Shown piece by piece: positions 27,101-64,000 of a stretch of 64,000 nt of DNA. Each line of letters opens with the position of its first letter. Positions within the stretch are counted from its first letter, which is position 1. The translations under genes and the position numbers were made by a program. Source of the stretch: Lingula anatina (Eukaryota > Animalia > Brachiopoda); assembly GCA_051362555.1 (NCBI GenBank), contig CM120640.1, positions 57,700,788-57,764,787 on the forward strand, read 5' to 3'. The notes beneath the pieces were generated by a model, which did not search any database, was not told the origin of the DNA, and saw only the letters and a list, made by a program, of their open reading frames with translations.

Positions 27101-30100
27101 CCTGGCGTAGACAAATGACCATCAAATAAAGAATCACGTTCAGGAGTGCGGCATCATAAAAGATAGTAATGGAAAATAGACGTGATTAAAAATAAGGACA
27201 TCTCATATACATATTTATAGCTAAGTAAAGTCCATTAAACCAGTATACATTAATATGCATTAATAAAGAGTGACACAATAAACACTAGAAGTAAACATTA
27301 AGTAAGTTGATAACGAAAAATGCATTTAACCGGTAAAATACTATATCCAAAGAGTTAAGGAATATGCATGAAATAAGGTTGTTATATGTCGCAGAATAAA
27401 CTTTGCCCCTATAATAAATATGTCTTTGATATAGTACTAAATCATTAAAATTATTAAATTATTAATCATTAAAAAGCACGAAAAACGTGAAGACTGAAGG
27501 CAAGAAGTTACCTAAACAAGAACATCAAGTGCTTCAATCGGCAATTTATATAGGAAATAGTTATACCCAATGACTCTAAAAGGGACAAAGAAAATTGGGA
27601 GACTCTTTACGGTAAAATCAGGCATGGTTAATTCATACGTATGGGACCAATATTCAACGGAAGGCAACATCTTCCCTATAGGTGTAAATACATATGGTAC
27701 CGTAATTAACGCGGTGGATAACTTTATCTTCATGGTATAACGCTTTCGTAACGGGTATCATCATCATCAACAAGCTGACTATGCAAATCTTCGGCAGTAA
27801 CTTAAACCTTGACAGAGGTTTCGATGGTACATACTGTGAGGTGACTCTCATGCGTGCATCAGTTTCATCTTTTGAAGAGATAAGTGCGTGTTAGTAGAAA
27901 GTAGAGTAGCCGGCTCAGATGAAACGGATGACGCTAGGAATCCCTCATGTGGGCCCACTAGTATGTAAATCATCTAATTTCGAATTTGGTACTGATAATT
28001 ACTATGAACATGTGTGCGTGTCACCGAACGCACGGAGAATCTCGAGCGCCCGAACTGTTATCTTCATGTCGCAAATACGTGTTTAAGGTGCATGAGCGCG
28101 AAACTGTAACATTAATCTTTGAAGAACTTGTCTAATTAAACTTTATCGCAATTTTCATATGAATACATAGCATGTGGAATAGATGCTAAAGAGACGGCAA
28201 TTGTTTCTTAATCACTGCTATAATAAGTTCGTGACGTACCGCTGATTACCGTATGACAAGGAAAATCAGTAGGGGTAGAATAAACCATGATATAACAGGT
28301 TTAAAATATCACATTGAAATAGCTGGGACCGTTAAACTCGAAATAGGTCTACGTAGAATAATAACCATGCCTAATGAAGGGACTTATCTTTTGCGACTTT
28401 TCCCACTAAGGGTTTTATGGATATGGAATTCTCTGATCAAGGAATGCGCAACGTTAAAGTGGGGCTCCCAAGTTGGGGTATATCCTTTCCACTTCACTAA
28501 GTAATGTTTGACGCCGCGTATGTTTTTACACTTCAGTAGCTTTTCAACATCGAACCATTCATCGGGCACTGGGGGTGGCTCATCAGCCGGTGGTGCCGGG
28601 GCAGGGTCAGCCTGATTGGGAATGGGTAACGGCTGCTGTGGTCTCAAGGGGCGATCTTGTGGATCTTTGTACAATTTCAACCGATTGGCATGAATGGGTG
28701 ACGGGTGCGCTTTGTTATTTTTGCAGTCACGCAACAGAAACGTATAACTAGACACTCTGTCTGTTATGTAGTAAGGTCCAACGAATTTTGAAGTCAATTT
28801 GGGGCTCTTTCCCGGTTTGACACGTGACCACTTCAACAATACTCTGTCACCTATATGGAAAGGGGGCGGATTTGCTGTGCGGTCAAAATTACGCGTGTAT
28901 TTTCCTTGTGCGCGTAATCTATTGTCGTGGGCTATCTTTCGTGCTGTTTCCAAATTTCTTTGAATATTGTCAATGTAATCTTCTACGGAGGAAGGCAAGT
29001 GATCCGGGGGTTTCAGAATGGACTCAAGGGGGGTGTTCATTTCTCTCCCAAACATTAAATGAAAAGGGGAAAACTCGGTCGATTCTGTAGCTGGCGTTGC
29101 TCTGAGAGCCATCATAACTCCTGGAAGAATGGAAGGCCAGTTATCCTGGGCTTCATTGCAATAAATTCTAAGGGATTGCGCAATGGATTGATTGTTTCTT
29201 TCAACGACTGCGTTTGAGGCCGGGTGATAGGCTGAGGTTAGTGAACGTTTGACATGAAACAGGTCACTCAATGTCTGGATCAACAGAGACGTAAAATTCC
29301 GACCTCTATCGGACACAATCACTCGGGGTGCTCCAAAACGGCAAAAGATTTCGGAGTACAAAACATGAGCTATTTCCTCAGCAGTTTGAGTTCTGAGAGG
29401 GAACGCTTCTGGCCAAGCTGAGAAAGAACAGACCACTAAAAGAATATACTTGTAACCTTCTTTCGATTTGGGTAAGGGACCCAGTATGTCCATATGTAGT
29501 CTGTCCCACACACCTACAATGGGAAGGGGTTGTAACGGAGCAGGCCGTTGACCGTGATGACGTTTCGCCTTTTGACAGGGTTCACAAGTTTTGACATATT
29601 GCATGATCTCAGAGTACATGCGAGGCCAGTAGAATCTGTGCCTGATCAACTCGTAACTTCTATCAAAAGCAAAATGAGCACCCGCTGCTAAGCTATCATG
29701 GTATGCGTGTAAAACATCATCCCTGTAAGGTGTAGGCACCGCTAATTGGCGTATAATTTTCTTGTCTGCCAAACTAGCGTTCTTTGATCGAGGTTGATAA
29801 ATATGGAACAGGAGATCACCATCCATTATGTACTGGTCAGACTCATAGACCGTTTTCCTCGCCAATTTGGGATCGCTAGGTAGCGTGTCTGTCTCAAGGT
29901 AACTGATTATGTGCTGACAATCAGCGCATTGTCTTTGAGCAAGGGCTAACTGAGATAAACTATCTTCGTCTGAGTGACTAATAGCGGAGAAAACATCAGG
30001 TTGTGTTTCACTAATGATCTCAGTAAGGATATGAACAGGGGATGACGGAATTGGAGGTTGCTCAACTATGGTGCGCACGGGCGCCTCGTTTTCATCTTTG

Positions 30101-33100
30101 GCTTTCCCTAGCAACGGGGTATCATCGTTGGTGACTTTGGGGACTGGGGCATCATAATCTCGGCGTGACAAAGCGTCAGCGGGATTTTTGTCGCCAGGGC
30201 GATGATGAATTGTGTAATCATACTCTTGTAAAGCTAAGGCCCATCTAATCAAACGAGGGGTAGTATGCTTAACTTGTTTCAGCCATTTCAAAGCCTGATG
30301 ATCTGTGTAAATGACGAATGGCTGATTCAGTAGATACGTTTGATACGTTCTCACTCCTTCAAGCACAGCTAAGCATTCAAGTTGCGTAATTGGGTACAGT
30401 CTCTCAGCTGGAGTTAATGAGCGACCACCATAGCATATGACCGTTTCCCTACCTGAATCATCTAATTGCCCTAATATGTAACCAAGAGCGTGACCTGACG
30501 CATCAGTCGTTAGGATGAAAGGTTTGGACATGTCGGGGAACTTCAGAATAGGCGGGTTAATAAGCCTATGCTTGAGTGTGGTGAATGCTGTTTCACACTC
30601 CTCTGACCATTGAAATTTCACATCTTTTTGCAACAATGCATTGAGAGGTTTTGCAATAGTGCTGAAGCCTTTGATAAATCGTCTGTACCAATTACAGAGA
30701 CCAAGAAAACTACGCACTTGCTTAACATTTTTGGGTTGTGGGAAAGTTTTCACAGCTTCCGTTTTGGAGGGGTCAACTTCAATTCCTTGTTTTGAAACAT
30801 AATGACCGAGATAAAGTACTTTAGGCATAGCAAATGTGCATTTGGATGGTTTTAATTTGAGGTTCGCCTGACGAAGAATATGGAAGACTTCTTGGAGGTG
30901 CAAAAGGTGTTCCTCGAAAGTTTTTGAGTATGAAAGGATGTCATCGATGTAAATGATGACTGATTTCCAATTTAGGTGCCGAAATAAGTTGCTCAAAAGG
31001 TATTGATACGAAGAAGGAGCATTTTTCAAACCAAACGCCATACGTTTGAACTGATATTGACCACTATGCGTCACAAAAGCTGATTTTTCCTTTGAATCGT
31101 CAGACAAACCTACCGTCCAAAAAGCTGTATTGATGTCCATAAGGGAAAAGTAGGTAGCTTTGGAGTCGGCAACAGAGTCAAAAATATCCTCTAAACGAGG
31201 GAGGGGGAAGCTGATTGTTTTGGTAACGGCATTCAATTTCCGATAATCAATAGCAAATCGAAAATCACCCTGTTTCTTTTTCACTAGTACCACGGGGCTA
31301 CTCCAAGGTGAAGTAGATGGTTCTATGATATCGTGCCGTAGCATCTTATCTATCTGACGATCAATCTCTGCTTTGGCTTGAGGACTGGCCCTGTAAAATC
31401 GTTGCGCAATCGGAGGATGCCCATCTGTTTCAATAGTATGTTTGTAGAGGGGAACGTGACCAATTTCAGATAAATCTGAGGCAAAAATGTCTTTGTTGCT
31501 ACCAATAAGACATAACAGTTGATTCTGTTGATTTGGAGAAAGATGAGTGAGATCAAAGGGAATGCCGAGAGAGAGAGCCGCTTGCTTGTTTTGAGGGGAA
31601 GGAGGAGGAATTGGAGGGGCGGGGCTGGAAGTGAAATCAATTTGATTTACCATAGATGAGTCAATACGGGACGCTTTGGCCAAAATAGTATTGCGACGTA
31701 TTGTGATAGTATTAGGAGTCACATTTGCCATACGGTAAAAGCAATATCGCGTTGACAAAGCATTCACTGAAGATGCGCCTAATAACGTAGAAACAATGTT
31801 GGTCGGTTCCAATAAAACAAGAGTTGACACTTGGGGTTTTAAGTGAACGCGAGAGACATGCACACGTACTAATTGTTCTGTGTGGGGCGCAATGGTGACA
31901 GTGGATGTATTGCGTGCGAGGCCCAATTGGTCAGAAACGGTAAAGGGGACTGTAATGTCGGGGTTACGCAAGATCAATTCCTGGGTGGACAAATTGAGAG
32001 TGGCTCCATGATTATGGAGGAAATCAAGGCCCAAAATAGCAGGACGAGTGAGTTTTGGTATAACTTGAAAATTGTGAGTAAATTTTGCTTTGCCAATGTA
32101 AAATTGGAGACGTAACACACCTAAAATGTTTTGGGATACACCACCTACGCCTATAATCGTTTTCAAATGAGAAGGCGGAGCTAACTGAGATAGTGAAATA
32201 CCTATTTTATGCAAAACGTCTTTCGATATACATGAAACAGAAGCACCCGTATCTACCAATGTGTCTATCCTACAGTTTCGTGTCGAAATAAAAATAGAAT
32301 TTTGTTTAACAGAATTTGACAGTGTACCGACAGCCTTTTCGTTTTTTCGTGCTTTTAACCGTCATTGGCGCCTACCAGAACGGCAGACCCTAGCTAAATG
32401 ACCAATTCTACCGCAATTTCTACACGTTGAATGAGAAGCGGGGCAAAATTTACGTAAATGCGACATACCACAGCCGTTGCATCTTGGTGTCTCTTGATTC
32501 ATGGCAAATTGTCTGTTTCCGCTGCGACCCAGTTGTCTACCTCCAGATCGTCCCTGGAATCGAGGGGGTGGAGGTCCATTGTTATAGCGGCGTGGTTGCT
32601 GGAATTGCCCGTGTGGAATGTACTCAGGGTACGCGTTCTGAAAATTAGAAGAGGGGGGTTGGCGCTGAAAATTGGGGTTCTGGGGATATGTCGCCGTGGG
32701 CTGCACAGGATTTACTGTGGCCGGTGTCGGGGGAGAAGTTGACAGTTGTGAAATCTTTTCCTTGATTTCGGACAATTGCGTGCTTAGGGCCGTTAACGTG
32801 GCAGATGGCGACGATGAAGGTTGAATGGCTGTTTCCGCCTGGCGTGCGCGTGCGATGAGTTCTTCGAAGGTATGGGGCTCATGTTGCGCTACAAACGGTC
32901 GTACTTCAGGTAGCAGACCGTGTAAAATGGCTTGAATTGCTTGTTCTTCTGGCAGTTGAACTCTAGCCGCCTCTCGTCGCATTTCTGCGATATAGTCCTG
33001 GACTGGTTGGGACGGAGATTGAGTTTTGTGGAAAAGATTGGACACTGCTACCCATTTTGCGCTTTCAGTTGGCCGAAAGCGACGGGTAAAGGCCAATTCT

Positions 33101-36100
33101 ATTGTTGTCATGTCCTGGCGGTGCTCTTCTGGTAGTGTATCATACCAATCAAGGGCGGCCCCACGCAACAGTAGAGGAAATGCCGAACGTTGTTGTTCGT
33201 CTGACAACCCTCTGTATGCTGCGTAATTTTTAAAATGGGCTAGCCAACGATTGTAATCTTCGTGAGTTGAGCCTGTGAATTTCTCAGGCATCAAATGCAA
33301 ATCGGCCGGCATATTATCAGCGTGGGCAGGCGGTAGGGGGTGTGGGGGAATTGGTGAGTTTCTGGCGGAATCGGCGGGCGTGGAGCTCTCAGTGTCGGAA
33401 ACGCTGCTCTCTAAAGGCTGAATAACAGTGGGGTCGGTGATATCGTTGAGTTGCGATAATGCTGGTGAAGCGGAGCGGGAAGAAGTCGGTGAGGTGTGTG
33501 CCGACGGAGGAGACGTTGGCTCTTTAACGGGAATCGACGTACGTGACTCACCTGCCTTTTTGTGCCTGGTATTTGCTGACGGCGTTGACCAATAGTTTTC
33601 TGGCCTGGAAAACATGCGGGGACGTTGCTGTTGGCTCAGCTGCGGGAGAAGGAATCAACCGTGTTCTCCACCACCTTGTAACCCGGATGGTTACTTAATT
33701 CTGAGCGGGTAGCAAACTTGAAAACACCGAAGACATCAATGGTAGCTCATGAAGATCTTTATTTTCTGACGGGCTACAATCTGGCACGCAGGCAGGGACA
33801 GTCACGACGATCTCCCGGGGTCTCCCTCTCACTAACTGAGAAGCCCTCATTTTATAGGGAATCGTTCTAAGTCCTGCGTGCCCAATAACTATTACTAAAT
33901 GTGTGTAATTTATAGGAATAATAAAGGAACTAAAGGTAACATACGTGATTAATAGGAAGTATGAGAAAACTAAATACAGGGACTATATTACATTCCATAG
34001 TAGCCCTGAACACGGATATGTTCTCCGGGTAGGAAGGTTACATAACGCTCGGACCTGGGAATGGCCTCAACTGGAATTTCCCCAGGTGTAGTGACTGTTT
34101 TTGGTGGAAGAGATCAAAAGAGCGAAATGACTATAATGAGGCCAAAGTATTTCTACAATTCTAGAGTCGGCACCGGGTTTCCATTTTCTGTCATCTGAAA
34201 GGGGTGTATCTTCAATTACTTAAATAAATTACTCTACTGAGATTTTTGTTTCTAATTTTGGTTTCTCTTCCGTGATTGAAAATGTGATTTAAAGGCAGAG
34301 ACAAATTGTATAACACTACCGTGTTATAACATTAAGTGTGAGATAATACACTGTCACCCGAGCGATATATGCCATAACACCTCGAGCGTTAGCGAGAGGT
34401 GTTCATGGCATATATCGCGAGAGGGTGACAGTGTATTTATTTGACATACATACCGAGAAAAAAATACAGTCATTTCATCCTAAAACACCCCTAAAACCGA
34501 ATAAAGTGACCCTATATCACGCTCTAGAGATGTTATATGAAATAAACCCGTCCACGTGCGCTGGTCACCTCCCGCCAAATTCTTACGTAATGTCTGACCA
34601 ATTAGGTCAATTTTTGCTAAATACTTGTCCAGCTACGTGTGGCTCAGCTGAGACGCGCATGGTCAGTGTAGACGATTTATTGATTAAATACTTTTCACGC
34701 CAGTTGAACGTCTGTTAAGATACTTCATGGTATATTACCACTTCATGGGATAAATGCTCTGATTTTACTGTCAAATCGACTTCATAGGATAAAATGCGAC
34801 TTCATCTCCACATAAGATATTGCCTGCGACTTCATGGGATAATGGTGAAAAAGTACCTGTTGTTGGCCCAACGCTATGAGAGAGAACGTTTTTGAAATTA
34901 TTAATATAATGTTTTTGTACTGTAAATATTATCCAAAATAGGTAAACTGTACGTTTTAATTTACTTGTATGACTGAATAGGGTTTCTTTAGTGGTATTGG
35001 ATGCATGTTTTGAGTAATTTTAAAATACACAGGCGTATGTAGGTGAGGATCCAGTATTTCTAAAAATCAGTACATTATGGGAGATAATGGTCAACGTTGA
35101 AGAAAAGGGGGTCCAGACCCCCTGGGCCCTCCCTTCCCAGATCCGCTTGATGCATAAAACTAATGGATCAGGTAAACCAGGCTATGAAAACATAAGTTAG
35201 GCGTAGGTTACTGGATTATAAGATGGATAAATAAACAAATAGGAAGCAATTATTAAAGATAAATAAATAGATAATAAAAAGAAGCAGAGAAGGTCGTGTA
35301 TATAATTGTGCTCTACAATTATCTTGATCAAGTCGCGTCCCACTCTGAAAAGACTAATTTTTGCATGAGGAAAGACGCGCAAGTGTAATTATTTACGTCT
35401 GTCCCTTGGTTTCCGAGATGCACTGTTCTGGTCCTACACCTGTGAATGTCCATCATGATGTGATCAATGGTGTCCCTGAAATGTGCCCTTGGCTGGCTCT
35501 CATTTGACCCGAAAGTATTATCTGCGGCACAGTCTGCATTTGGAAACCTGTTAATAAGGCGTTCGTCCGGGGGGGGGGGGGGAAGGGGGGAGGCCTACTT
35601 GTTGTTTAGCAGCCTAATTAACGTAGTTGATCTGCGAGATCAACAGCCTTGTAGATTGATATTTATTCAGAATTGTGGTTGATTGTAATTGTTGTTGATT
35701 GTAATTTTTACATCGTAATTTCTGCTATCTACCCGTAGACCTTTAGTAGTGGGACTTGGGGGGGGGGGTATATATTTTTTATATCGTTGTTACTGGTATC
35801 CTCTATCCATTAAAGTGAGGAACATGAGACGTTGGGGATATTTAAACTTGACATTAGGGATGTGCACGTGTCCTTCGGATTTTTGGTGACTTTGGTGACC
35901 TAGGGGTGGTTGATTATTATCTTTAAATTGTATTTTCTGCTATATACCCATAGGTCTTTAGGTTGAGGAAACTAAAATGTCGGGGTGTGCATAGGCAGTT
36001 TTTTTTTTTTTTTTTTTTTTTTTTTGTGACCTGGGGTGTGGCTGTCCCTGGGGATGGTACACATATATATTACCGTAATTTATTTCATCTCCCCCTAGAC

Positions 36101-44288: not shown

Positions 44289-47033
44289 AACTTCCCAATT
44301 ATTTAGATTGTATTCTAGTCATCTGCTGTGATGATATTAGTAATAAATATGATAATGATAATGATATGCTATGATATGATAAGAGTATTTTACAGAGGTT
44401 GCGCTTTTAAAAACAACAGTGTAGCAGGGAGAGGTAATTAAAAGTATTAGAGACAATGGCCGAGTCTGATTTTGGCAAATCATCTTACTTATGTTGACCA
44501 CTTATTTATGGAATATTTACAAATCAGCAAGTTTTATACAAACTGTCAACAGTTCTGTTTCTACTGCAAGTTCTGATAGGACTGTTACGATTTTGCAATA
44601 CTGGGAGCATTGGCCCATTTGGTCGTTGGCGTGGTTTGAAAATCTAGTCGTTTCACATTTACGTTTCTTGTCTTAATTTTCCTTTAAGCAGCTATTAATA
44701 AAAAAGCATTTCTATTATACGCCATTGTCACTTGGAAGTTTCGTCATGTATCTCGTCGAGAGCTGGAGTTATAGAACTGATTGGTTTTTTTTTCTTTTAA
44801 CGCTGTAATACATGCCACACGACTACCGTTCCTCTTAACTAAGGAACAAACTATTATAAGTGGCAGGGTACCGGGTTAACTTTTATTCATAGCGCACTTA
44901 AAAAAAGTTCAAGTTTATGTTATCGTAAAAAGAAGGGAAAATGCATACAATAGCACAGTGTATTCATACTTCTGATGCAATATTCCAATGGTGCATTCTA
45001 AAACGAGCCTACAATTATCTTATTAACGCGTATCCCGTCATTGTTTTGTCGTTTAGAAGGGCTTTGTAAATGAAGGCACTGTGCTTACCAATATTATGCT
45101 ATCATAAGCCTAGTTTAAGTATAGACAGACACCGTTGATGTAAATCCAACAAACGCTTGTAGTAAAGGTATTACTCATTTTGTGTACACTAATGCACACT
45201 GAAATCTATACCGATTTAACAATAAACTATAAATAAACCCCCTTGAAAAACTATACTTCCAAGTTTTCTTTATTGACAATTTAAATGAGCAATATCATGT
45301 GGCATACACATAAATATCTGGCAAAAACGATGAAGGGCGAAAGCATCATCCTTTATCAATAGATGACATTAATTTGACATTCAGTTATCTTCACTTTACT
45401 CCAGTAACTAAAAAACTTAGTTTTAAAACAATGTTGATCCAATATTAAATGCCAATTCAAAATTAAACACCATTTTTTCACTTATTTTACTACAGTTTAT
45501 CAGTATCACTGAGCACAAAAAAAAGAGCACTAGCAAATGTCATACCAGCTGTAGCAAATGTTGTTCAAGTACACACTGTACCCATCAAGCTAAAGCCTCC
45601 TCTACTCAACGTGAAAGACATGAATAGCACAATAGCTGAAGGGAACTGAAATAAATGAACTTTTTTTTAGATGTTTACAGGATTTTAATACTTGAAGCAA
45701 TGTGAAAGAGTGGCAGTGACCACCACACATTGCATGGTTATAAGATATTGCTTCTTTTGCCGTTTAATAATTTAAATTGCATATTCCATATACACTAATA
45801 CATAATAAAGCATACTATTTAGGAATACTTGAGTGTCCTGTTTGCCGGACTAAAATACAGACAGCAATCTAATACATGTACATACTCAGCTGCCACAGCT
45901 TTAATACAATGATATATGTCAGCAGTGAACATCACATAGTGTATATCACAACATGGAGAGACATAATAAGCACCTAATCACTAAAGTTCTGTTCATTGAA
46001 ATACACTTGTATCAAGTTCAGAAAACCAAAGTGGGCTATCACACTTTTTACACATTTACCTCTTGCTAAATAGTGTTCTAAAGTAATATATGTTACAACT
46101 CTTGTGCAAGATCTTAATAAGAAGTCCTCTGTTGTACACTATATTTTATAAAAGTTAAATGCATCCTGAACTAATGGTTACTTGAAATTTCTCCACCATT
46201 AAACCTGTTTCAATACATAAATATTAATGTACTTGGTACAAAGCTACATCAACTGCTACAACAATTTTCCCATCTCATGTCACAGTTAACAACATACATA
46301 GATATATATACTGCAATAAATTAGATATGGCAAGTTCACAAGCAAAACAAAAGACATCACACAGACAAAATACATTAAATGCATATACAAGTATAAGTAT
46401 CAAATACAAAATGAAGCAACTTAGCAGCAAAAGCTGACAAACATCAACAACAATAATGCAGTGCTCCTACATATACCTAACATGTGTAGATAAGTAAAAA
46501 AGATTGTCATGGTAAATCCATGTACATGTATATAAATAACTGTAAAGCAAATGCTTGTTCAAAGTAATAGAACCCTTTATTCCTTTAACTAACAAGATAT
46601 TTATATGAAATACACAGAGAAAAATATTTAGAAAGGAATGTCAACTTTGTTTGGTCCACATTAAGGAATGAATCAAGGAATGTACTTGTAATGTAATCTC
46701 CCACATAACCCAAGTGCCCTGTTTTATAAAATATCAAGATAATAATCTTACAAAATCTAAAAAGAATCCAAGAAATAGAGAAATATACTAAATGCATATA
46801 CATAGTTTGATTTTTAATAATGCTTATTAGATATAAAGTGAATCTTTTCTATATAGGACATATATGGTATCTGTGTAAGGATTAGCTATAGGTGAAAATA
46901 TTCACTGACATTAACATAGACTTGAAGTGTGTGTGTCTGTGTGTGTGTGTGGGGGTATTTAATTAGCTTATTAAAGTCCTTATACAGGTTAGCATTCATT
47001 AGTCAATGTGTACAGAAAATTTTAACCCTGTGC

Positions 47034-47131
47034 TTGAGAGAGATATTGTGTATATACATCAATACTTTAAATGGCCCACACAGGGTCATAGCTTTAGAAA
47101 AAAACTACATAAATAAAGATGCCCATCAGAT
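47034..47131. repeat. Inverted copy of intronic segment 49451-49548
   Basis: ttgagagagatattgtg...gcccatcagat is the near-perfect reverse complement of atctgatgggc...cacaatatctctctcaa. Confidence 0.9.
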
Positions 47132-47465
47132 CTTTTCTTTCTTGTGAAGATGAGCACTAAAGACCACTTCTTGTTACAAAGATGTCATGGGGACCCCATC
47201 CTGTAAGGCAGATTTTCAAGAAGGATAAAAACTGGAACAATGTGGTAGGTAAGCTTAAAATATCTTCATGCACATATATCTTCTTTTTCACAGCTGTACA
47301 TGCCTATTTGCATTGTACTGACATACACCAGTCTACTTATCTCTAAAAGCTATCCTCATTACAAAATGTTTACCTCTGAATGATTTTGTAAAATACATTA
47401 ATTTTTAAATCCAAGATAAAATTATGTATGTGTGCATGTGCATGAGTGTTCTATTAAACATTGAT

Positions 47466-48624
47466 TTACATTGATTTATACAGCACTGAATTTACCTGAG
47501 GAACAACACCACAGCAGCTTTTTGAAAAGCTTGATACTTCTTTGCCATGCAGTTTTCTATCATGTTTAAGAAACATTTAATATAGGTTTGTATAAAAAAT
47601 AAGCTTACCTCAGTTGTGTAAGTAACAGCACCATCATAACTCTCCTCAAATCCTGAAACTCCCTTCAACACCTGCAGCTGGTGCAAAACTGCTACTTCTT
47701 CCTCTGTGAACGACTTCAGTGGTATATCAACATCCTTTTCTTCCTCCTTGGCATCCAGAGAACCATCATATGATTCATTGTCATATCCAAATGCTGTTGA
47801 TGTTATTGCAGGCTGGTACTTCTTTGGTTTCTTGGACTCTACAGAATAATAGGTTTGCTGTATATATATTTTTTTCGTCAAATCCAATTGGTAATAGCAA
47901 CTTACTAGTAGACCAAAAATATATGACCTGTTCCTTGTCATCAGAACCAATGCCATATACATGCACTAGACCTTTACCTTGTGATTAAATCCATGCCTGA
48001 TACAGCAGACATTTCTATGCAATGATATTTATTTCTCACTGATGACAATAGCACCCCCAAGACATGGTAAATTACACAGACAATTCTCACACATAATGCA
48101 GTATCTTTAAACCCAAAAATAAGATGAATTTTATTCTTTCTGGAAGACATTCATGATGTATGCTAAATGCATAGTAGCTACCGGGTTAAAGTTACCAAAG
48201 CCTTACAACCCAGTGCACATGCTGGTATCAGTATGTATAAAGGAGCCTAAAGTTGCCATTTCTCCTGAACAGGATACTAGTATGTGAAGTCAATATCAAG
48301 TAACTTCCAGACATATTGTGTCATTTTTAATACTTAAATACATGAGGTGGGAGCAACCAATGTGTTAAGTGCCTAAGGACATATTAAAGATTTAATGGCC
48401 GATATGTCATTACTCCTACACCTATTCGAGAAAAAAAAAACACTTAGAAACTATTTGTTTAATCATTATTAATAATTTTTGGAATCTTCATTAAAAATAT
48501 GAAGTTTAATCAGCTCATACCCCTGATAACTTCTCTTATCCTCCAGAGTCTGAAAACGATGAGAAGTCCAACCCCATCTTTGGCTGTACTGGGCATGACA
48601 ATCTTTCTACACTCATATGCTTTT

Positions 48625-48665
<41 letters not shown>

Positions 48666-51600
48666 AATATATTTATCCCTTGAGCATAATATATAACCAT
48701 ACCTGATAGTCTTCTCTTATCATCAAATGAGATTCTATGGTCATCTGTGTGCTGGTCATGGTCATCATGAAAGTCAGTGAAGACAGGCTGGGAAGTGGGT
48801 TTCTTCTTGAACCTTCCACCACCTTGCTCAGTTTTCTTTGTTGAGCTACTTTTTGACTTGAGTGCTGACTTTATCTCAGGAGCTAGAAAAAAAACATGAA
48901 AATACTCATATTTTATATGTTGTTGGTTACCATTTACAGAATCACCAAAATGAACAATTTTCATCTAAAACATAATGTATCAGTCACTTTTGAAAATTCT
49001 CAACCCAAACATATCTAATCTATCGATAAACATTCTGACTTACCTTGAGTGCTGGGCTGCAATCTGTCCTCATACTGGCTTAATTTCTCTTTGAGGCTAC
49101 TTATTTCTCTCTGGATAAAAAAAGAATATTTATTCACAAAGAGTCATGAACAAACAAATATAATTATATCTATAATGATTCTTATACTGGATATTTCTAA
49201 CCATTTTAACTACCTACAAAAACCTCCAATGTACAGTTGTACCCATTACACAGGTAATTTTATAGCCAATATTCCCCAAAGCCCTGCTTTCCTGACAGCC
49301 TACCTGGTCCCATTCCTGCTGTGATATTGCTTCCACTGCTTTACACTCAGCCTCTATGCGAGCTTTTCTTTCTCTAGAAAACTTCTCTATGGCTTCTTTT
49401 CTCAACTCCAATGCAGCACCTAGAAGACAGAAAATTTTGAACAAACAAACATCTGATGGGCATCTTTATCTATGTAGTTTTTTTCTAAAGCTATGACCCT
49501 GTGTGGGCCATTTAAAGTATTGATGTATATACACAATATCTCTCTCAATGTGCAATATTTGAGAAAAAAAACACTTAGAAACTATTTGTTTAATCATTAT
49601 TAATAATTTTTGGAATCTTCATTAAAAATATGAAGTTTAATCAGCTCATACCCCTGATAACTTCTCTTATCCTCCAGAGTCTGAAAACGATGAGAAGTCC
49701 AACCCCATCTTTGGCTGTACTGGGGATGATATCAAAACTGTACACCACATAAATTACAAACACCAGCGTCACTAACACAGCATCTAGCACCTGAAAGGTA
49801 GAAAAATGATAAACTGTTAAATAAACTTATAATCTTTGAACACATTATCATAATAAAGAGCTTAAGGGAGCATAACTTCCACACCTTTATTGAAAGTAAA
49901 AAATAATAAATACATTACATGCACTTCTTTATAGAAAAATAAGAGTGACATTCATTGGAATCTTACCTCGAGTTTATATTTGAAAAAAGCACCACTCCTT
50001 GCAACCAACTTCAAAATAACCTTTAAAAATAATAAAATTACACTACTGTGAAAATGCAATATATACACTGTATAGACACACACACACACACACACACACT
50101 ATTATCAAGTCTAAACTGTCAGAAATGCAAGAACCATGAAACTGTAGATAAACTGTTACAGCAATGCTAACTGTGAATACTTTCAAGATGCTGAGTTGTT
50201 TTTAATATATTTATGTTATAAAATGGTATTGTGCATCCAATTATTTCCATACCCAGATCAAAATGTGTTAGCAAACTATTCCAGTCAATAATGCATCCTA
50301 TACAAACATAATAAATACATATGGGTGGCTACGAAAAACATAAGTAATTTTAAAGTTCAAATACTTCAACAGTTCAAAAGCTTCTGAATTAAAATTCGGC
50401 TCAGTTTCTTGATACCTTATTATTGGTCAATGAAAATGTCAAGTGTTAAGGTGAAACAGTTTTGATATAATTATCAATTGCCAGACACTGAAAAGTACAG
50501 TCATGAAATTAACATTTACAAAAAGCATTATTTTCCAAAAGTATCCTAAATCTTATTTCATACAATATCTTCAAAACTGTTGAAATTAGTTTACTTAGAA
50601 ATTAGTAATGTTTTTTTAGCCACCCGATTTGTATTTTCTTATCATTATTTAAAAAAAGCAAAGTTACGACGCATACTAACCTCCAGCATAAACAGACACA
50701 AAATACAAAGACTGATATAATGTAAAATCTCTCCAGCTAAATTAACCTGGCTATTTGGTACTGGAAGCACCTTGTTTGTAAACCCTGCAGTTGAGCTTCC
50801 ATTGATTGTTGAACTATGATTGTCCTCAGCCAGTGAGCAAGTGCAAAGTGCTGAAAAAATAAACATACAAGTTATAATCATATATTCATGAAAATGTATG
50901 ATTTTTTAAAAGTTGCAAGTATTCTGCAGGTGTGTGTGTGTGTCCAAGTATGTGTGTATCTGTGTCTATGTGTCTATACGTGTGTGTCTAAACGCAGCTC
51001 TCATCACTACTCTCTTTAATAAATATCTAAAATGCTGGATATAATGTGCACATATGACTTTAAAATACCTACCCTTTCTAGTACCATACTCACCATGTAT
51101 AATCCCAATATCAATCAGAAGAAGCATATAGATAATTAGACTGTCTAAAACAACCAGCACCAGGATAACACTGTTGGCAAGCTGACAGTAAAGATAATGG
51201 TCCAACCATTGTTGATAACTGAAATATGTGAAATAAAAGTACATTCAAATGAAATGTTAATGGTGGTCTTAAACAGGTGTTCGATTTCACTACATGTAGA
51301 TGAACCATAATAATCGCGTTAAGCTACTGTACTTTAAAGCTCACTCTTTTTAACGAACAATTTGAAGTAAAATTATTACTTATAACAAAGCTGTACATAT
51401 CAAAACATAAAACGTTGCCGAAACATACAGGACCCTTCCTAAATAGTTTTTTAAAGCTAACTCTTTACATTCATGACAAAATTAGAAAGCCGACATATTC
51501 ACAAGTGGACCGAAGCTTCCACTTACGTTTGTTTCTTAGTTCCGTTTTCTACGTTGTCAATGGTGTGTTCCAACCTCCGGGAACCATCATCCCTACGTAA

Positions 51601-51698
51601 AGGTGTAATATAATGAATACATCTTTGAAACCAAAGCCATTAGATCTCATAAAATGAGAAATATCACGATTAAGAAAAATAACTTACCTATCCGCCAT
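47466..51698 (-). CDS. Voltage-gated proton channel (Hv1/HVCN1)-like voltage-sensor-domain protein with divergent S4, coiled coil and long charged tail
   Basis: Exons (minus) 51698-51688, 51592-51527, 51218-51094 (S1 ILVLVVLDSLII), 50850-50681 (S2 ILHYISLCILCLFMLE), 50020-49967 (FFKYKLE), 49790-49652 (S3 VLDAVLV; S4 LLIVFRLWRIREVIRG), 49419-49304, 49110-49044, 48882-48703 and 47838-47609, all with compatible phases. The last exon is uncertain (47495-47466 or 47293-47288). Confidence 0.85.
48428..48593 (-). repeat. Intronic direct duplicate of 49561-49723 (3' half of the S3-S4 exon, its donor site and adjacent intron)
   Basis: Near-identical by eye except for poly-A length. Confidence 0.9.
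50322..50627. mobile_element. MITE (Tc1/mariner-like ends)
   Basis: Inverted pair gggtggctacgaaaaacataagtaatttt / aaattagtaatgtttttttagccaccc. Confidence 0.6.
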
Positions 51699-52669
51699 TT
51701 CAGTGTGTCACATTTCTACCTTTTTATTGAAGGTCAAGGTGAAACAAGACAAGCTATTTAAGGTCCCATAGGTTGTGTATAGGTCATACATGAGGTTAGC
51801 TCTTTTTAAAATTAAATATACTTAGGCTAATTTGATAATTATGTTAAAAATGGTTAAACTATAATTCTATGTTTGCTAACTTTACTTTGTTTAATAATAA
51901 CGAAATTATATTAAAAAGACCCAATATTGTGTTAGATGTGACACCCAAGGATGGCTTACAGTTGTCCCCACAGTCTTGATCACTGCCAAAAACGCAGTTA
52001 GAAGAAGCCAGGGCTAGGCTAGTCATTGTTTTGCAAATGTCATGGCACATGGCTTACAATTTGACAAATAACACACCTAATTGTCAGGTGGGCCAGCAAT
52101 GCAAATGCCAGCAATCCCAATCCATGTAGGCCTACATGCCGTATATTTATTTTTACGCATTTTATCACATTTAATTGATTTTGAGAGTCTTTAGTCCATA
52201 TAAAGTAGATATATTGATGTTTTATACGTTTCCTTCGACATTTTGAATTTGTTGAAAAAGTCATAACAAGATTCAAGGTTCAACTTGCTCCGAATTGTGT
52301 TAGATGTGACACGCAAGGATGACCGAATTGTAGTAGATGTGACACCCAAGAATTACCGTTTGCACACCAATTTCTAATCTTACTGTGGTCCTGCACAAGT
52401 TGCAGCAACCGGTTCGCAGGCCAACTGCCAGTCGTATCCGTGTTTGATCCAAAAGTCATATTTCCTGTCTTCTTAGTGCATATCCTGAAATGCTACCCTT
52501 ATTTCCCAATTTAGACCTTAAAAACAATAAATTCACTAAAATAAAGTGCCCACTAGTGACATCGACATTTCCTTCTAAAATTAAATGTACAGGAAGATCT
52601 TTTAGGCCAACGTTAACGGGAATTTTTCCCTTAAGTTAGAGGGTTATTACGGAGAAACACCACTGATAC

Positions 52670-53097
52670 CCTATTGCCAACGTTCACCGATTGATTCATA
52701 GCTAGCTGACGAAGTTGGCCCGACGTTGGCATAACAGCAGCTAACCGCCGATAGCAAAAGCTCATAACGACATAAGCCCAACGTTGGCGCGACGTCGGCA
52801 AAAGGTCGGCATGGTTATCGATAATATGACGTCGGCCCAACGTTGGTGCAACGTTGGCAAGATAGTGGCATCGTTGGCATAACAGCGGCTTACCGCCGAT
52901 AGTAATAGCTCATAACGACGTTGGGCCAACGTTGGCGCAAAGTTGGCAAATGGTCGGCATAACAACGCAGACCACCGGTGGGCCGACAGCGCGCCGCCGG
53001 ACACGCCGACCTGGAGCCGACGTCGTCTGCCAACGTTGGCCCGACGGAGGCAAAGTCGTCGGGCCACCGTTGGCGCGACCACTGTTTGCTATCTGGG
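52670..53097. mobile_element. GC-rich repeat element with many CCAACGTTGG palindromes, ending in tttgctatctggg (CCCAG-terminus class); left end not identified
   Basis: Repeated ccaacgttgg / cgacgtcgg units and an internal about 130-bp duplication. The right terminus resembles that of the 18894-19992 element. Confidence 0.6.
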
Positions 53098-53777
53098 ACT
53101 TAGTGACCGGGCAGATATTAAGGATAACGAGTATATCATTCAATAAATTATGGTATACAACATCGAATCCAAGTGCAGGGGCGGCTCGAGCAAACTGAGC
53201 CATGAATCGGTAGTAGACTTAAATTGCTGCTTTTTTTAGCGAGGACAGAATACCTTTAACGGCAAATAATATTAAGTTTGTCCGCTTTATGTACTGATAA
53301 TAAAACAACATGGATGGAGATTAAATCGTTTTGATTATTCTTATTCTGTATCCACATTCACTGTTTCACCTATTCATGTGTAAAGGCATATTACATGATA
53401 AAAAATGTAAGTCGGCACAGCATTATGAATACACTGTAATAATTTCAAGAACCTAAGAAATATTTAGGCCTACTGTCATACATGTATTCAGTATTGTGTG
53501 CTTCTCATTTGTTTAAAATGTATAATCTTCAAAATATCCCTACATGTTGGTTTACTTTAGGCCTAACTGATAAAAGAAAATAAGTTTTTCAGTGTTAAAC
53601 AGTGTATGTTACTGATGAAAATATTGATCTTTTACGCCATGTACGTGTTTCTCTCCCATTGCACACTTAAGAGTCAGTAAAAACATATTCCACAACAAAA
53701 GCAGCTCATAATCTCTAAGTTTATTGGCTAGTTGATAGACCCTTGGTTCGATCAGTCACTTTGCCTTCTTGATTCTT

Positions 53778-58963: not shown

Positions 58964-61114
58964 CGGTTATTGACGGATGCTACTTGACGATGAATTAAAT
59001 CTAAGAAACTCGCGTTAGGGAAGTGTCTCACTTACAGTAACAGGTCTTTTCTTGTTGTCGGCACAGATTTCCTCTTTTGGGAAACAGTCGGAACTCACTC
59101 TGTTCTTTGACTCACTGATGACCTATGTATGAAACATAATTTGGTGTAAAATACACTTACAAAGACCGATATAAAACAGGTTTATAGATGGGATTTTGAC
59201 AAATGCTAAATATAATCTTTTTTGAGTAATAGATTTCGTATTATAGTAACTTGATGCATGCAATTCTGTCTCGCGTACCTCCTTCAAGTTTCTAAAGAGT
59301 AGGTCATTGTTTTTGTCCATGAACCCACGTAGTTTGTACGTCACATCACCGGCGTAGTGCAATATCCGAAACTCCTAGAAAATTAGAAACGTACTGGTTT
59401 GATAGAGCTTTTGAAAGAGAAGCATAATTAACTATATTTTGCCACAGTCGAATTACATTCCATCACAACTTCATGTAAAGAATGAACCACTTTTTTTCTC
59501 TTGCTGAATCAAAACAAATCATACATACATAATCAGTAATAGCCAAGATTACTTAAAAACATTGTATTTTATAAATATATATATTCATAAATATGTACAA
59601 AATAAAGATCGCCTTGGAAAATATTACATCTAGAACAGGTTGTTTTCCACTTACCCCTCTCTCTCTCTCTAAGATATCTAATTACCGTTGCTCATTGTTA
59701 CAAACTGAACATGATGGTTGAAAATGTTTGCAAATCAAAATTGATAGAGAATGTACAAAACTTACGTCCTGTTTAAGTGTTCGTCTAATTTGATATTCTG
59801 CTGTGGCATGGCACACAAAGTGGGGGTGCGTGCCAAACGTGTCTGCAAGCTTTTCTAGAAATGTGAAATCAGTGGCATCCCCCGGTCTCAAACACTCTTC
59901 GTCCTAGAACATATCCATACTTATTTTTATAGAACGTCTTATTTTTTTAAAGAAAAGTATTTCTGCAATGACACCTAAATGCAAAATGTGAAATTATGGT
60001 AAGTGACGGGACCAGTTCGCAACAAAGCACGTATGAGTAAAATGGTGCCTATTAAAACTGTATTGCAATACAAATTCGCTGTGTGCAGTGGCATTTTATT
60101 GTTAAAACACTTCAGTTAACTAGTAATAAAACAAGCCTGTAAAAGATGGAACTGCACGTAGTTGACATACCAAAATTGCCATGATTCCTACTGGCTTAGC
60201 GTCGATTAAGTCACAGATGATTTTGTTATTAAAGAACTGTACTGGTTCCCACTGAAATACATTTACACATATAAAGATACAAAACACTGATTACCATGAT
60301 ATGAAACGCAAACATGACGAAACATACAAAAATGGAACACTCTCCAAGCAGAGGTACAAACTGCTTAGAATTGTTTAAAACTAAAACTAAACATCTATGA
60401 TACACCCAGAGACCATAAGAACTTTAGTATATGCACTGCCCAGGCCTGTATTTAATTCGTTTCCGAGCAAAATGAGATATAAAAATAAACGACTACATAA
60501 CAAAATACACTGTAAAGAGTAATAAATAAATAAAATAGACCGTACAAAAAGAAACCTTGAGTAAAAGGTCACCAACTATCATGATCAATCATTTCATGTT
60601 GTGTTGTACTAGTAAATATCTTTCCAAAGCCAACTGCTCTTGCCCAGCACTTACCTCAATACCTTCATTAATGTATTCATCTTGCTCTGATTTCAGGGTT
60701 AGGGTGATGAAAAGCTGTTGCAGCTTCTCGTTACAGTAGTTGATGCAAAACTGCTCAAAGCTAAAAGAATAGGACAAGGGTGGATGCACAGTGCATTTAC
60801 CGGAACACATTGTACTGAAACACACTGATCTTCATCATTGCTGTATCGAGGAAGTATGAAAAAAAAGTGTTGGGCCCTGAGCCATTCCTCTCTTTGATAG
60901 ATATTGGGACTGGATCTCCCATTTTTTTCTGAGCACGCTCAAATGTACGTTATGCATTGATTTAGGATGATACTTTACGAAAACCATTCATCATGCGGAT
61001 TGTTAAGAGAGAAAACTAAACCAACCTGTTGTGAAGAAATACTTCAAATCCGTAAATGTCCAATAACCCCATAACTGGCTTGACCTCTTCGTCCTAATAA
61101 CACGAGCAAAAAAA

Positions 61115-61145
<31 letters not shown>

Positions 61146-64000
61146 GAATAACGAACGACATAATGACGTTATTGTTTTTTTTCTTTTTTCTTCAACTTAT
61201 CATAATACACAGGATAGTTTAATATAAATATAGTTAGGCCTGTCCGACCTGTAAAATGAAAGCAAAACAAACGAAGAACCAAAAACAGACACACCTCTTT
61301 GGCTCCTAGTGAATCATTAATTCTTTTGACAAGCCATGAAAAGAGTCGGTCATAAATTCCTTTCGCCAACGCATCTCTAGCGTGAATGGCTTGTTCTTTT
61401 GTCAACGGGGTCACCACCTGTAAGCAATTTAATTAAGTTTTATAACATTTGTCTATTTTTTCTTTTTTCTGATAACAATTATTCATAAATGAACTGCTCT
61501 ATTAGCCTACATCACTTTCTGTATGGGAAACCCGGCCCGTTGGACAAATGCAGTCTACACGCGGCCTGCAACAATTGACTGTATTTTTCAGTGAAACTGT
61601 ATGATAAACTTTTTAGATATAACTTATAGTCATAAATAGCAAAATACACTAACCTTTTCTCCTCTGACATCTATAGTTCGATTGAGCAAACCCCGAAGCA
61701 GTTTTTCCTCTTTACAGCCCAACAACTAAGTGAAAAAGAAACGCTCCTATAAAATCACATCCAACATGAATAATATGTAATTTGTATAGGGAAATTTGTC
61801 GAATATCGATGCAATCCAGCCGAGAAACCCTGTTAGCTAACGTACCTGACTGACGATTTCTACTGGGACTTTATTCATGACGTCAGCACTGCCGCCTCTC
61901 TCTGATGCAAACTTCATATTCCCGAGATGCATGACTGCTGCGACTACTGTAAACAATTCCTAAAGCAGAATCAAACAAAAATATTAATGTTTTTAATGTG
62001 GACAAATATGAATACAATTGCGACAACGAATTGTAAGATTCACGACTTGATTGACTCACAAAAAGTGCAGTCGCGTTCTATTAAACCTGTAGTAAGTCCT
62101 TGTAAAAAGGTGCGTTTAACGTGATAAGTATATCGATGACGACATGAAACATATTCAAGGATCACATTGCTGCTAAATCGAAGTCATACCATCTGGTCAC
62201 TCTCTTTAATCTCGCATATTTCCATAGCTTTTCTCATCTCTCCGAATTCTGCGGCATCGTCAATTGTATTGACCGAAATACACTGCCCCTAAAATGATAT
62301 TGTGTGTAAAAAAATTGAAAGCAGTATTGCATTTATCACTTTTCTGACCGGCATGTGCTTATTTGAAAATGAAAAAGGAGGAATCAAGAAGCAGGGTGGT
62401 GGTTTACAATATTTATTATAAAAAGCTACATAAGAAGATAATGTAAACTTGTATTCAGTCTAACACAAATTTAACGATAAGCGAGAATAGGTTAGAAAGT
62501 CAAATTGCAATGCAATAATGGAAGGTGGCTTAGCATATAAGAAAGTTAAGATTGCAATGTATAACAAACTGAACAAATGACAAATAAGAAATATACATGG
62601 GGCCCTGTAGGAAAACACCTTGTGTTTTATTTCTTTCGAAATTTCAAAACTGTTTTAACTGTTTTAAAGAGAAGAAAATTTTCACGTTCAATGTCGTTGA
62701 ATAAAATCTCGATGTCAACTAACCTTACAAAGAATCGCATACGAGTTTGGATCTTTGTGAAGTCGAAGATGATCTAATAGTTTTCTATCTCCGCTGGCCA
62801 GCAACTAGGAAGAAAATGTAAGAATTGGGTCCTTGCTGTTTTCTTAGAACATGTTATACATATTCACAAGCAAGATGGCCTCGATATCTTTAATAAAAAC
62901 ACAATAAAAACCACCTATTGTATTACTGAATCGAAAATAAGGTAAAGTACAAAGTATTATACCTGATAGAATATATGGAAATTTCTCTCTCCGGTTGTTT
63001 GGTTGACAATTCTAGATTTTTCTAGTAGGTAGTTGAGGATATGACCGCCTACGGGATGTCCCTGAAATGCCACAGACTGTCACTTTGCACACAGCTGACT
63101 GAATAGATTCCCTGCGATACATGTATAGATCTACAGGGTGGTCCATAAAAAACGACCTATTCCCCCCCTCTAAAAGATGGTTCTAATGATATTGCCCCAT
63201 TATATTTTAGGTGATATAGAGCAGAGCCCCAACAATTCTTCTGATATGTATACTGCCTGTTCAGATCCATATTGGTACCAGAAGAATTGTCTGGGACTCT
63301 ATAAATACTGAAGCACTATCATTAGAAATATTTTTAGAGGGAAAACAAAAAAGGTCTTTTTTTATGAATCACCCTGTCTTTAATAATATTCAAATGACGT
63401 ATAAAATGACATGTGCAGAATCCAATCAGGCACAAAGGCCTTTATTTTCGACTACTTAATTTTATTTATTTAGAAGGACGTTACAAAGGACTCGGTTTCG
63501 CGATTCACCCGTGGAATTGTATGCTGCTCATTCAAATAAATGTTATACGAATGTGTGCAGTTCTTTCTTTGTTATGCTTTTTAATTCATAATGCTATTTG
63601 TATCTTAAGTTTACCGACCTTGATACTGAACTGTATGTCCATGTACTTGCCAAACCGACTAGAGTTGTCGTTTCTCGTTGTCTTTGCGTTTCCAAAAGCC
63701 TAAGGAAGAGAAAGAATCAATTCCTAAAATAATTTGAAAATAAATATAGTAATTGCGTTTTTACCCGGAACACATTTTTGTTTCAGTGTGTGCTTGCACT
63801 TACAGCTTTCAAACACATGCTACACATACATGTAATAACTGGAATTTCAACATATGAGTAGACAAGTAAACATACAAGTTAAAACGTTGCTTACTTCTAG
63901 GATAGGATTTGATTGTAACAGCCGTTTCTTGACTTGGTCTACCTTCACTGTGTGTGGACAGCTGGCGGCTATATAGTGCAAGATTTTTTTGGTAGCTTCG
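53778..64000 (-). CDS. MYO1C: Unconventional class I myosin, myosin-IC-like (5'-truncated by window)
   Basis: Exons encode EATKKIL...SNPILE (64000-63895), [19 protein letters not shown] (63699-63619), LLEKSRIV...[75 protein letters not shown], two IQ motifs and a TH1 domain ([18 protein letters not shown]). The protein ends ELRV|[15 protein letters not shown] (53825-53778). The 1C subtype is inferred from tail motifs. Confidence 0.92.
63134..63376. mobile_element. Tc1/mariner-like MITE in a myosin intron
   Basis: Ends read ta|cagggtggtccataaaaaa ... tttttatgaatcaccctg, with internal inverted similarity. Confidence 0.7.

Follow-up and report, generated by a model that had tools for sequence, protein, structure and literature searches.

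Whether a protein of the voltage-gated proton channel (Hv) family that carries an acid in place of the third gating arginine (R3) of its S4 helix still passes protons is the question raised by a minus-strand gene of the brachiopod Lingula anatina. The gene lies in a window of 64,000 nucleotides (assembly GCA_051362555.1, contig CM120640.1, positions 57,700,788 to 57,764,787 of the forward strand), this whole stretch being what we call the window, in which an original prediction from the letters alone had drawn attention to 49652-49790. We found that this segment is one minus-strand exon (exon 6) that encodes helices S3 and S4 and ends R-L-W-R-I-R-E-V-I-R, and that the S4 motif and the gene are real and expressed, as RNA. 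We tentatively propose, with slightly less than even confidence, that the Lingula protein is a voltage sensor, predicted to be anchored through its PDZ-type tail, and that it lets little or no proton current flow outward.

To place the acid within S4, we compared exon 6 with human Hv1 and obtained a gap-free alignment through the helix. Against a profile of 42 stored Hv segments, the ungapped placement after the second gating arginine (R2) scored +12.2, +20.4 and +30.1 over 10, 20 and 30 residues, and all six register shifts of one to three residues in either direction gave negative scores. The GT donor stands 31 bases past the start of the first gating arginine (R1) in the window and likewise in 8 of 10 Hv loci from metagenomes. 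Because the ungapped profile scoring and the conserved intron both exclude an insertion or deletion, E185 corresponds to R211 of human Hv1, R188 to N214, R184 to A210 and G189 to G215. A one-residue slip that would place R184 at R3 was rejected by the profile scoring. R184 is out of the R1-R2 register and faces away from R182 on an alpha or 3-10 wheel. AlphaFold, given exon 6 alone, returned two helices (2-21 and 25-45; mean predicted local distance difference test score, pLDDT, 75) with S4 unbroken, and a Foldseek search with this predicted fold found no match, the fragment being too small in both cases to bear on function.

Compared with Hv1, the protein is changed at R211 (E185), N214 (R188), A210 (R184), D185 (Y156), E119 (L58), S181 (V152) and H168 (Y139), and it keeps D112, D123, H140, F150, E153, K157, E171, D174, F182, R205, W207, R208 and G215. 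The gene model and alignment give a stand-alone four-helix voltage-sensing domain without a pore domain, an acidic filter residue in the middle of S1 (D51 at the D112 site) and a charge-transfer centre of F121, E124 and D145 at the F150, E153 and D174 sites, but the S4 signature RxWRxxR/K is broken, with RxWR kept and Glu at the third position. Residues 190-245 align without gaps to the Hv coiled-coil region, a likeness of alignment only. The original prediction is thus confirmed in its description of the residues: the S1 filter Asp is kept (D51, 51145-51143), Leu and Tyr stand at the E119 and D185 sites by alignment (L58 and Y156), and the reading of S4 as RxWR followed by Arg, Glu at R211 and Arg at N214 is upheld by register scoring and reads. 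Two of the outcomes that could have overturned it were not seen, since the alignment does not restore an Arg in the i+3 register and the Glu codon is unchanged in reads of four runs.

The gene comprises 11 coding exons on the minus strand, from 51698 down to 47174, with an open frame of 394 amino acids, and all ten introns are GT-AG. Nine of the ten exon joints are present in raw RNA reads (four runs from three studies, chosen by species label), and exon 1 and its joint have zero read cover in the four runs. The transcript lies on the minus strand because every first mate of runs X1 and X4 falls on the plus strand. The model matches stored Hv proteins with E values down to 4e-30, so the likeness is not due to chance. 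Its parts are as follows:

51688..51698, minus strand: coding exon 1 (ATG, 11 bases), with a GT donor and no read cover; its N-terminus agrees with the RefSeq protein.
51527..51592, minus strand: exon 2, N-terminal cytosolic part, with AG/GT ends; its joint to exon 3 is in reads.
51094..51218, minus strand: exon 3, S0 and S1, with D51 at the D112 filter site (51145-51143), L58 at the E119 site and D62 at D123 (splice sites, reads, alignment).
50681..50850, minus strand: exon 4, the S1-S2 loop of about 40 residues and the first half of S2, with H111 at H140, F121 at F150 and E124 at E153 (splice sites, reads, alignment).
49967..50020, minus strand: exon 5, the end of S2 (K128 at K157), the S2-S3 linker (Y139 at the H168 site) and E142 at E171 (splice sites, reads, alignment).
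49652..49790, minus strand: exon 6, S3 (D145 at D174, V152 at S181, Y156 at D185) and S4 (reads, alignment).
49653..49682, minus strand: S4 motif, with R179 (R1), W181, R182 (R2), R184, E185 (R3 site, GAA, 49664-49662) and R188 (N214 site, 49655-49653) (alignment, reads, profile scoring).
49304..49419, minus strand: exon 7, G189 (at G215, split codon) and the beginning of the helix aligned to the Hv coiled coil (splice sites, reads, alignment).
49044..49110, minus strand: exon 8, end of the coiled-coil-like region (splice sites, reads, alignment).
48703..48882, minus strand: exon 9, charged, low-complexity tail (splice sites, reads).
48430..48598, no strand assigned: 169-base duplicate (2 mismatches) that spans the 3' half of exon 6 and intron sequence after it; it sits within intron 9 and is spliced out, the reads running straight from exon 9 to exon 10.
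47609..47838, minus strand: exon 10, acidic tail (splice sites, reads); the RefSeq model departs from the frame near residue 352.
47174..47200, minus strand: coding part of exon 11, 8 residues ending PMTSL and the stop; its joint 47199/47608 is in 3 of 4 runs.
46000..47173, minus strand: 3' untranslated region, a minimum extent, with read cover to the edge of the stretch examined.

A second read alignment, of exon 6 only, drew on four runs, one of them common to the first alignment, with mean depths of 3, 8, 15 and 17 over 49659-49669. These reads vary at five places in exon 6, none of them in the codons of E185 or R188, and the sole variant place inside the S4 motif is synonymous and lies in the R184 codon (4 of 7 reads in run X6). 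Among the coding variants listed, 19 were scored, with 27 further entries beyond these; 12 are synonymous, and none of the 7 others, which fall in the N-terminus, the S3-S4 linker region and the tail, is at a core site. Those listed within helices are synonymous, and from this pattern the gene looks to be under purifying selection. The duplicate in intron 9 is not a second coding exon. A joint that goes back 899 bases in the reads was rejected because its longest side, 66 bases, is shorter than the 78 exon bases that the copy shares; it represents exon 6/7 joint reads misplaced on the duplicate. This duplicate had been placed at 48521-48583 and taken to speak against sequencing error, an argument that carries little weight and that concerned only part of the true copy of 169 bases and two mismatches (48430-48598).

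The gene is a known one. By eye, the model equals LOC106178050 over residues 1-351, S4 motif included, except at residue 36, which is His in RefSeq and in the reads and Tyr in the window. At the corresponding base, 51190, all reads of four runs (5/5, 7/7, 12/12 and 7/7) differ from the window, whose base is a rare allele or an assembly error. The RefSeq transcript XM_013561049 has an X near residue 352 and then leaves the frame towards a different end, whereas the protein ends PMTSL according to the read-supported last exon; the RefSeq annotation of this C-terminus is wrong and needs correcting. Published sources are cited throughout for the portions of their text and supplements that were available. 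Figure S1 of Chaves et al., 2023 (PMC10377628), which marks doubtful channels in red, shows LOC106178050 (XM_013561049) as one of the putative Hv channels; its entry was taken from text without that colour, and the other Lingula paralogues are known only from the same supplement. The word 'Lingula' is absent from the main text of that paper, and Glu at R3 goes unmentioned there: the natural R3 variants in section 3.2 are confined to Lys and one Gln, section 2.2 names Ci-VSP, Oikopleura, Saccoglossus and Limacina as degenerate forms with this Lingula gene absent, and a manuscript in preparation on molluscan unconventional channels is mentioned (PMC10377628). Our literature search, with most subscription papers outside its reach, returned no paper on the REVIR motif and no single R211E or R211D Hv mutant. 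The sequence is therefore already deposited and printed, and the charge reversal at R3 is previously unremarked.

Class I PDZ-binding motifs are terminal S/T-x-hydrophobic triplets, and we predict that the PMTSL end of the Lingula protein is of this type. Since the RefSeq model had lost the true C-terminus, the link from this end to other invertebrate paralogues was previously hidden. Compared by eye, the last nine residues of Aplysia LOC101854637 match the Lingula end bar one I/V change, with more matches just upstream (PMC10377628 supplement); Limulus LOC106463214 and LOC111087200, one of them automatically named TMEM266-like, end IPMTSL; and looser matches are found in the centipede Scolopocryptops (GCIY01027533, ending IPVTAL) and the lancelet Branchiostoma (LOC109467017, ending APATAL). 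A P-x-T-S/A-L end occurs in 0 of 49 stored Hv proteins. All six tail-sharing proteins keep R-x-W-R, and four of the six have a basic residue before R3. R3 itself is Arg in three (Limulus twice, lancelet), Glu in Lingula, Phe in Aplysia and Leu in the centipede, and the filter site is Asp in Lingula, Glu in Limulus, Ser in Aplysia, non-acidic in the lancelet and missing from the partial centipede sequence. The Limulus proteins have Lys before an intact R3, the centipede protein has Lys before the R3 site and no acid at D185, and the lancelet protein has Pro-Met at the 184-185 sites, as in TMEM266.

What these proteins have in common is thus R1-x-W-R2 and the tail, not the filter or R3. Because R3 and the filter vary across the six, REVIR is the state of one lineage and not a conserved motif; the expectation that orthologues would keep it fails, the putative orthologues carrying other residues there. 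The Lingula protein would then belong to an apparently unrecognised long-tailed invertebrate group, the members of which are given singly and ungrouped in Chaves et al. (PMC10377628). We found no current recording of any tail-sharing paralogue in the literature searched. In Figure S1 of the same paper, R2 is Tyr in Schistosoma XM_012937229, which carries Lys both before R3 and at the N214 site, and Saccoglossus XM_006812030 has Leu at R3 and Lys at N214; degenerate paralogues show a basic residue at N214 repeatedly.

To estimate how rare the Lingula residues are, we fetched 51 proteins and dropped two as unrelated; the remaining 49 stored Hv-family proteins were recruited by shared words and are biased to canonical forms. 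All 49 have Arg at R3 and an acid at the D185 site, and none has a basic residue just before R3; Glu stands at E119 in 43 and Asn at N214 in 47. At 10 metagenome loci, found with patterns ending before R3, this residue is Arg in eight, Lys in two and acidic in none. The two with Lys, L007:3001-3130 and L008:3001-3130, share the same Hv-like S4 with Arg at the N214 site and an intron placed as in animals; judged from sequence, they are a second natural N214R-type form. Aligned-core identity of the Lingula protein is 32-43% to 47 of 48 stored Hv proteins. In a tree of 49 rows (P0001 dropped, P0002 and P0003 left out), built without TMEM266, Hv3, Hv4 and the tail-sharing proteins, it sits on a terminal branch of 1.36 substitutions per site outside the sampled Hv1-like and Hv2-like groups, with low deep support.

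Wider searches added little. A word-based search with exon 6 alone scored 0 of 35 candidates; phmmer against 1.84 billion representatives gave three matches, of which only P0001 was a true Hv exon, the two others being dropped as repeats without a matched stretch. Two profile searches (37 and 14 proteins) found no P-x-T-S/A-L end, no TMEM266 and no orthologue with the REVIR motif, and these are weak blanks. Pfam returned nothing at its cut-off for six exons, a PDB search with exon 3 gave 0 matches, and a metagenome scan with pattern A1 gave 576 pattern matches, 0 confirmed. The ESM Atlas placed exon 6 in Ion_trans clusters at 0.90-0.85 and returned nothing usable for exon 10.

How might such a protein work? 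R1 and R2 of S4 would still cross F121. With R3 gone, and with it both outer counter-charges (the E119 and D185 sites), the open state would become less stable and the channel would open only at very positive voltage. In the up state R188 may move into the inner mouth and, like N214R, obstruct outward flow, taking over from R3 as partner of the inner acids E124, E142 and D145; the coiled-coil-like helix could bring two subunits together and carry the movement of S4 to the tail and its PDZ-type end. The gene probably arose within an ancient line of bilaterian proteins resembling TMEM266, where the filter and the inner half of S4 are relaxed. In Hv1, the mutations R211A, D185A, E119A and S181A shift opening by +70 mV, +42 to +58, +20 and 0 to +18, respectively (PMC4969798). 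N214R gave no current in oocytes and a small, inwardly rectifying current in HEK cells (PMC4969798); elsewhere it cut outward current and abolished liposome uptake (PMC8926398). The original prediction had spoken of a block of outward current by N214R-type substitutions, of which the reduction of outward current holds; inward current stays, and current was recorded in mammalian cells and not in oocytes. Its picture of a divergent Hv paralogue with a long, signalling-type tail gains support from the long branch outside the sampled Hv1 and Hv2 groups, the TMEM266-like traits and a PDZ-type end common to invertebrate paralogues. Of its suggestion of a non-conducting or differently gated or selective paralogue, the divergent, long-tailed paralogue stands and non-conduction does not follow, as the single changes conduct in Hv1 mutants.

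Several observations weigh against our proposal. D112, R208, W207, F150, E153, K157, E171, D174, H140, D123, F182 and G215 are all kept. Conducting Hv1 mutants include R211A/S/Q/N/C/H, D112R/R211D, D185A/V/M/N and E119A, vesicle flux of E119L is unchanged (PMC4969798), S4 cut between R2 and R3 keeps current, and D112R/R211D is H+ selective (PMC4969798, PMC10377628). N214R leaves inward current (PMC8926398), the characterised oyster Hv4 has Val at the E119 site (PMC10377628), and Aplysia Hv3 conducts without R1 (PMC10911540). A simulation preprint (10.64898/2026.10.06.757015) assigns the R1-D185 and R3-D174 pairs to the down state, and losing them could favour opening for that reason. In TMEM266, moreover, R3 is intact and the N214 site is Asp, and its orthologues are reported as vertebrate-only (PMC6392501). 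That the single-mutant shifts add up is assumed.

A serious possibility, though probably not the right one, is that the protein is still H+-selective and has been re-gated: the D51-R182 filter would work, the charge swap between R3 and N214 would compensate in part, outward current would be small with inward or leak current dominant, and E185, which faces the inner vestibule, might be titrated and so switch the channel with internal pH, Tyr occupying the H168 site. This lies close to our proposal because every single change conducts in Hv1 mutants, and it agrees with the kept filter pair and gasket, with the inward rectification of N214R/K, the H+ selectivity of R211 mutants and the accessibility of R211 from the inside only (PMC4969798), with the inward current that persists in N214R and the tie of H168 to internal pH sensing (PMC8926398), and with Arg at the N214 site of L007 and L008. 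Set against it are the five unusual sites found together (E119, S181, D185, R3 and N214), the loss of the filter in tail-sharing relatives, the silence of TMEM266 even with Asp restored (V111D) and the failure to find a single R211E or R211D Hv mutant in the literature searched. A channel with near-normal outward current, which would mean that R3, E119, D185 and N214 tolerate more change than the signature implies, seems unlikely: R3 charge reversal occurs in 0 of 49 proteins and 0 of 10 loci and N214R strongly reduces outward current (PMC8926398), even though LOC106178050 is printed among putative Hv channels, fungal Hv and Hv4 have Lys at R3 and one natural form has Gln, and protist, fungal and Hv4 sequences have His, Glu or Thr at the N214 site (PMC10377628).

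Relaxed selection could have degenerated the sensor into a voltage-insensitive membrane scaffold in which the REVIR charges have no special role, as the replacement of R3 by three unrelated residues (E, F and L) among the six tail-sharing proteins and the terminal branch of 1.36 might suggest; we judge this very unlikely, given that the R1, W, R2, F150, E153 and D174 sites are kept, that R1-x-W-R2 stands in all six and that the helix variants listed are synonymous. A sequencing or assembly error, or a pseudogene, is scarcely credible. Microsatellites and a local duplicate do occur in the region, the RefSeq model contains an X and ends wrongly, and the window base at 51190 differs from all reads of four runs, but the spliced reads, the 394-codon open frame, the unchanged Glu codon in four runs and the same motif in the RefSeq protein oppose an artefact, which the reads already refute. 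It is the RNA reads and the matching RefSeq protein, not the duplicate, that are real evidence against error.

With an acid at R3 and its filter Asp kept, the protein is a natural experiment on what R3 and N214 do in gating and selectivity, which is disputed, and if it is indeed an Hv sensor of low conductance it would also serve as a scaffold for gating-current work. The corrected C-terminus ties the gene to uncharacterised paralogues in Aplysia and Limulus, and should these prove related to TMEM266, whose function is unknown, that protein could be studied in tractable invertebrates and would have a candidate PDZ anchor. The weight of the finding is limited in that it concerns a published sequence and a motif that relatives do not keep, and the function proposed is a prediction.

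Other features of the window lie apart from this argument. The 3' untranslated region holds, at 47034-47135, a 102-base inverted copy (98%) of part of intron 6 (49447-49548), so that the pre-mRNA could form a long duplex, and the alleles in runs X7 and X8 diverge much around it. Upstream of exon 1, at 52700-53100 and 51922-52355, are G+C-richer degenerate repeats (an 89-base pair and 11-base units) and three copies of a 33-base motif. On the minus strand, 26349-33982 contains the frames 32362-33654 and 28384-32361, with an identical 95-residue translation at 26349-26636 and 33695-33982; we take this to be a long terminal repeat retrotransposon with gag-like (32362-33654) and pol-like (28384-32361) frames, and the same translation at both ends suggests young, identical terminal repeats. 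Plus-strand exons at 2500-44300 presumably belong to aminopeptidase N genes with Thr/Pro-rich linkers, two large plus-strand exons (7431-9437 and 9583-11022) presumably encode an IgGFc-binding-like domain, and those at 59123-61432 presumably a myosin motor domain, probably of class I.

Among known systems, human Hv1 (HVCN1, 5OQK) shares with the Lingula protein the stand-alone S1-S4, D112, F150, E153, D174, R205, W207, R208 and G215, the coiled-coil-like helix and the intron in the G215 codon, whereas the Lingula protein has a longer S1-S2 loop and a tail of about 150 residues after the coiled coil. The molluscan Hv2, Hv3 and Hv4 of Aplysia and Crassostrea are likewise lophotrochozoan paralogues. 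Hv2 and Hv4 have the longer S3-S4 linker in common with it, and Hv4 also lacks E119 and varies at R3 and N214; the Lingula protein differs from Hv4, which is short with Lys at R3, from Hv2 in standing outside that group in the tree, and from the unconventional molluscan and brachiopod Hv3 in having Leu for the proline before the S4 Trp (xPWRxxR). The tail-sharing paralogues have the same C-terminal motif, long tail and R-x-W-R, and only the Lingula form combines an Asp filter with an acid at R3.

A functional parallel may be TMEM266 (HVRP1, C15orf27), which has K213 just before R3, D217 at the N214 site, V111 and M185 (Papp, 2019; PMC6392501), a coiled coil, a long disordered tail and zero proton current, with orthologues in vertebrates only (PMC6392501). 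It gives voltage-dependent fluorescence without current, and V111D does not rescue it (Kim, 2014; PMC4148356), so that an S1 Asp is not sufficient for current; the same paper lists P184/M185, the pair also present in the lancelet protein. No TMEM266 sequence was among the results of our word, phmmer, profile and metagenome searches, and no invertebrate TMEM266 appears in the available parts of PMC8346283 and PMC13095418. Automatic names are unreliable here: a different Lingula paralogue, whose Hv motif is intact, bears the name 'C15orf27 homolog' (PMC10377628 supplement). The Lingula protein resembles TMEM266 in the basic residue directly before R3 (R184 at the K213 site, so that Arg before Glu is not unique), in the non-acidic D185 site (Y156 against M185) and in a coiled-coil-like region followed by a long tail, the latter by length only (about 150 against about 250 residues). 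It differs in its D51 filter, where TMEM266 has a hydrophobic Val, in having E185 and R188 in place of a third S4 arginine and an Asp at the N214 site, charges thus being reversed at R3 and N214, and in having lost the E119 that TMEM266 keeps as Glu. Perhaps, by analogy, it works like TMEM266, and we do not file it as a member. A bolder possibility, which we regard as doubtful, is that TMEM266 reaches beyond the vertebrates, as part of an ancient bilaterian line of stand-alone voltage sensors with PDZ anchoring whose members include those of brachiopod, sea hare, horseshoe crab, centipede and lancelet. The Lingula member would then be a natural charge-swapped form that retains the Asp-Arg proton filter; its Glu at R3 could titrate and its Arg one turn lower could block, which would make it either a sensor switched by pH or a proton path open only inward.

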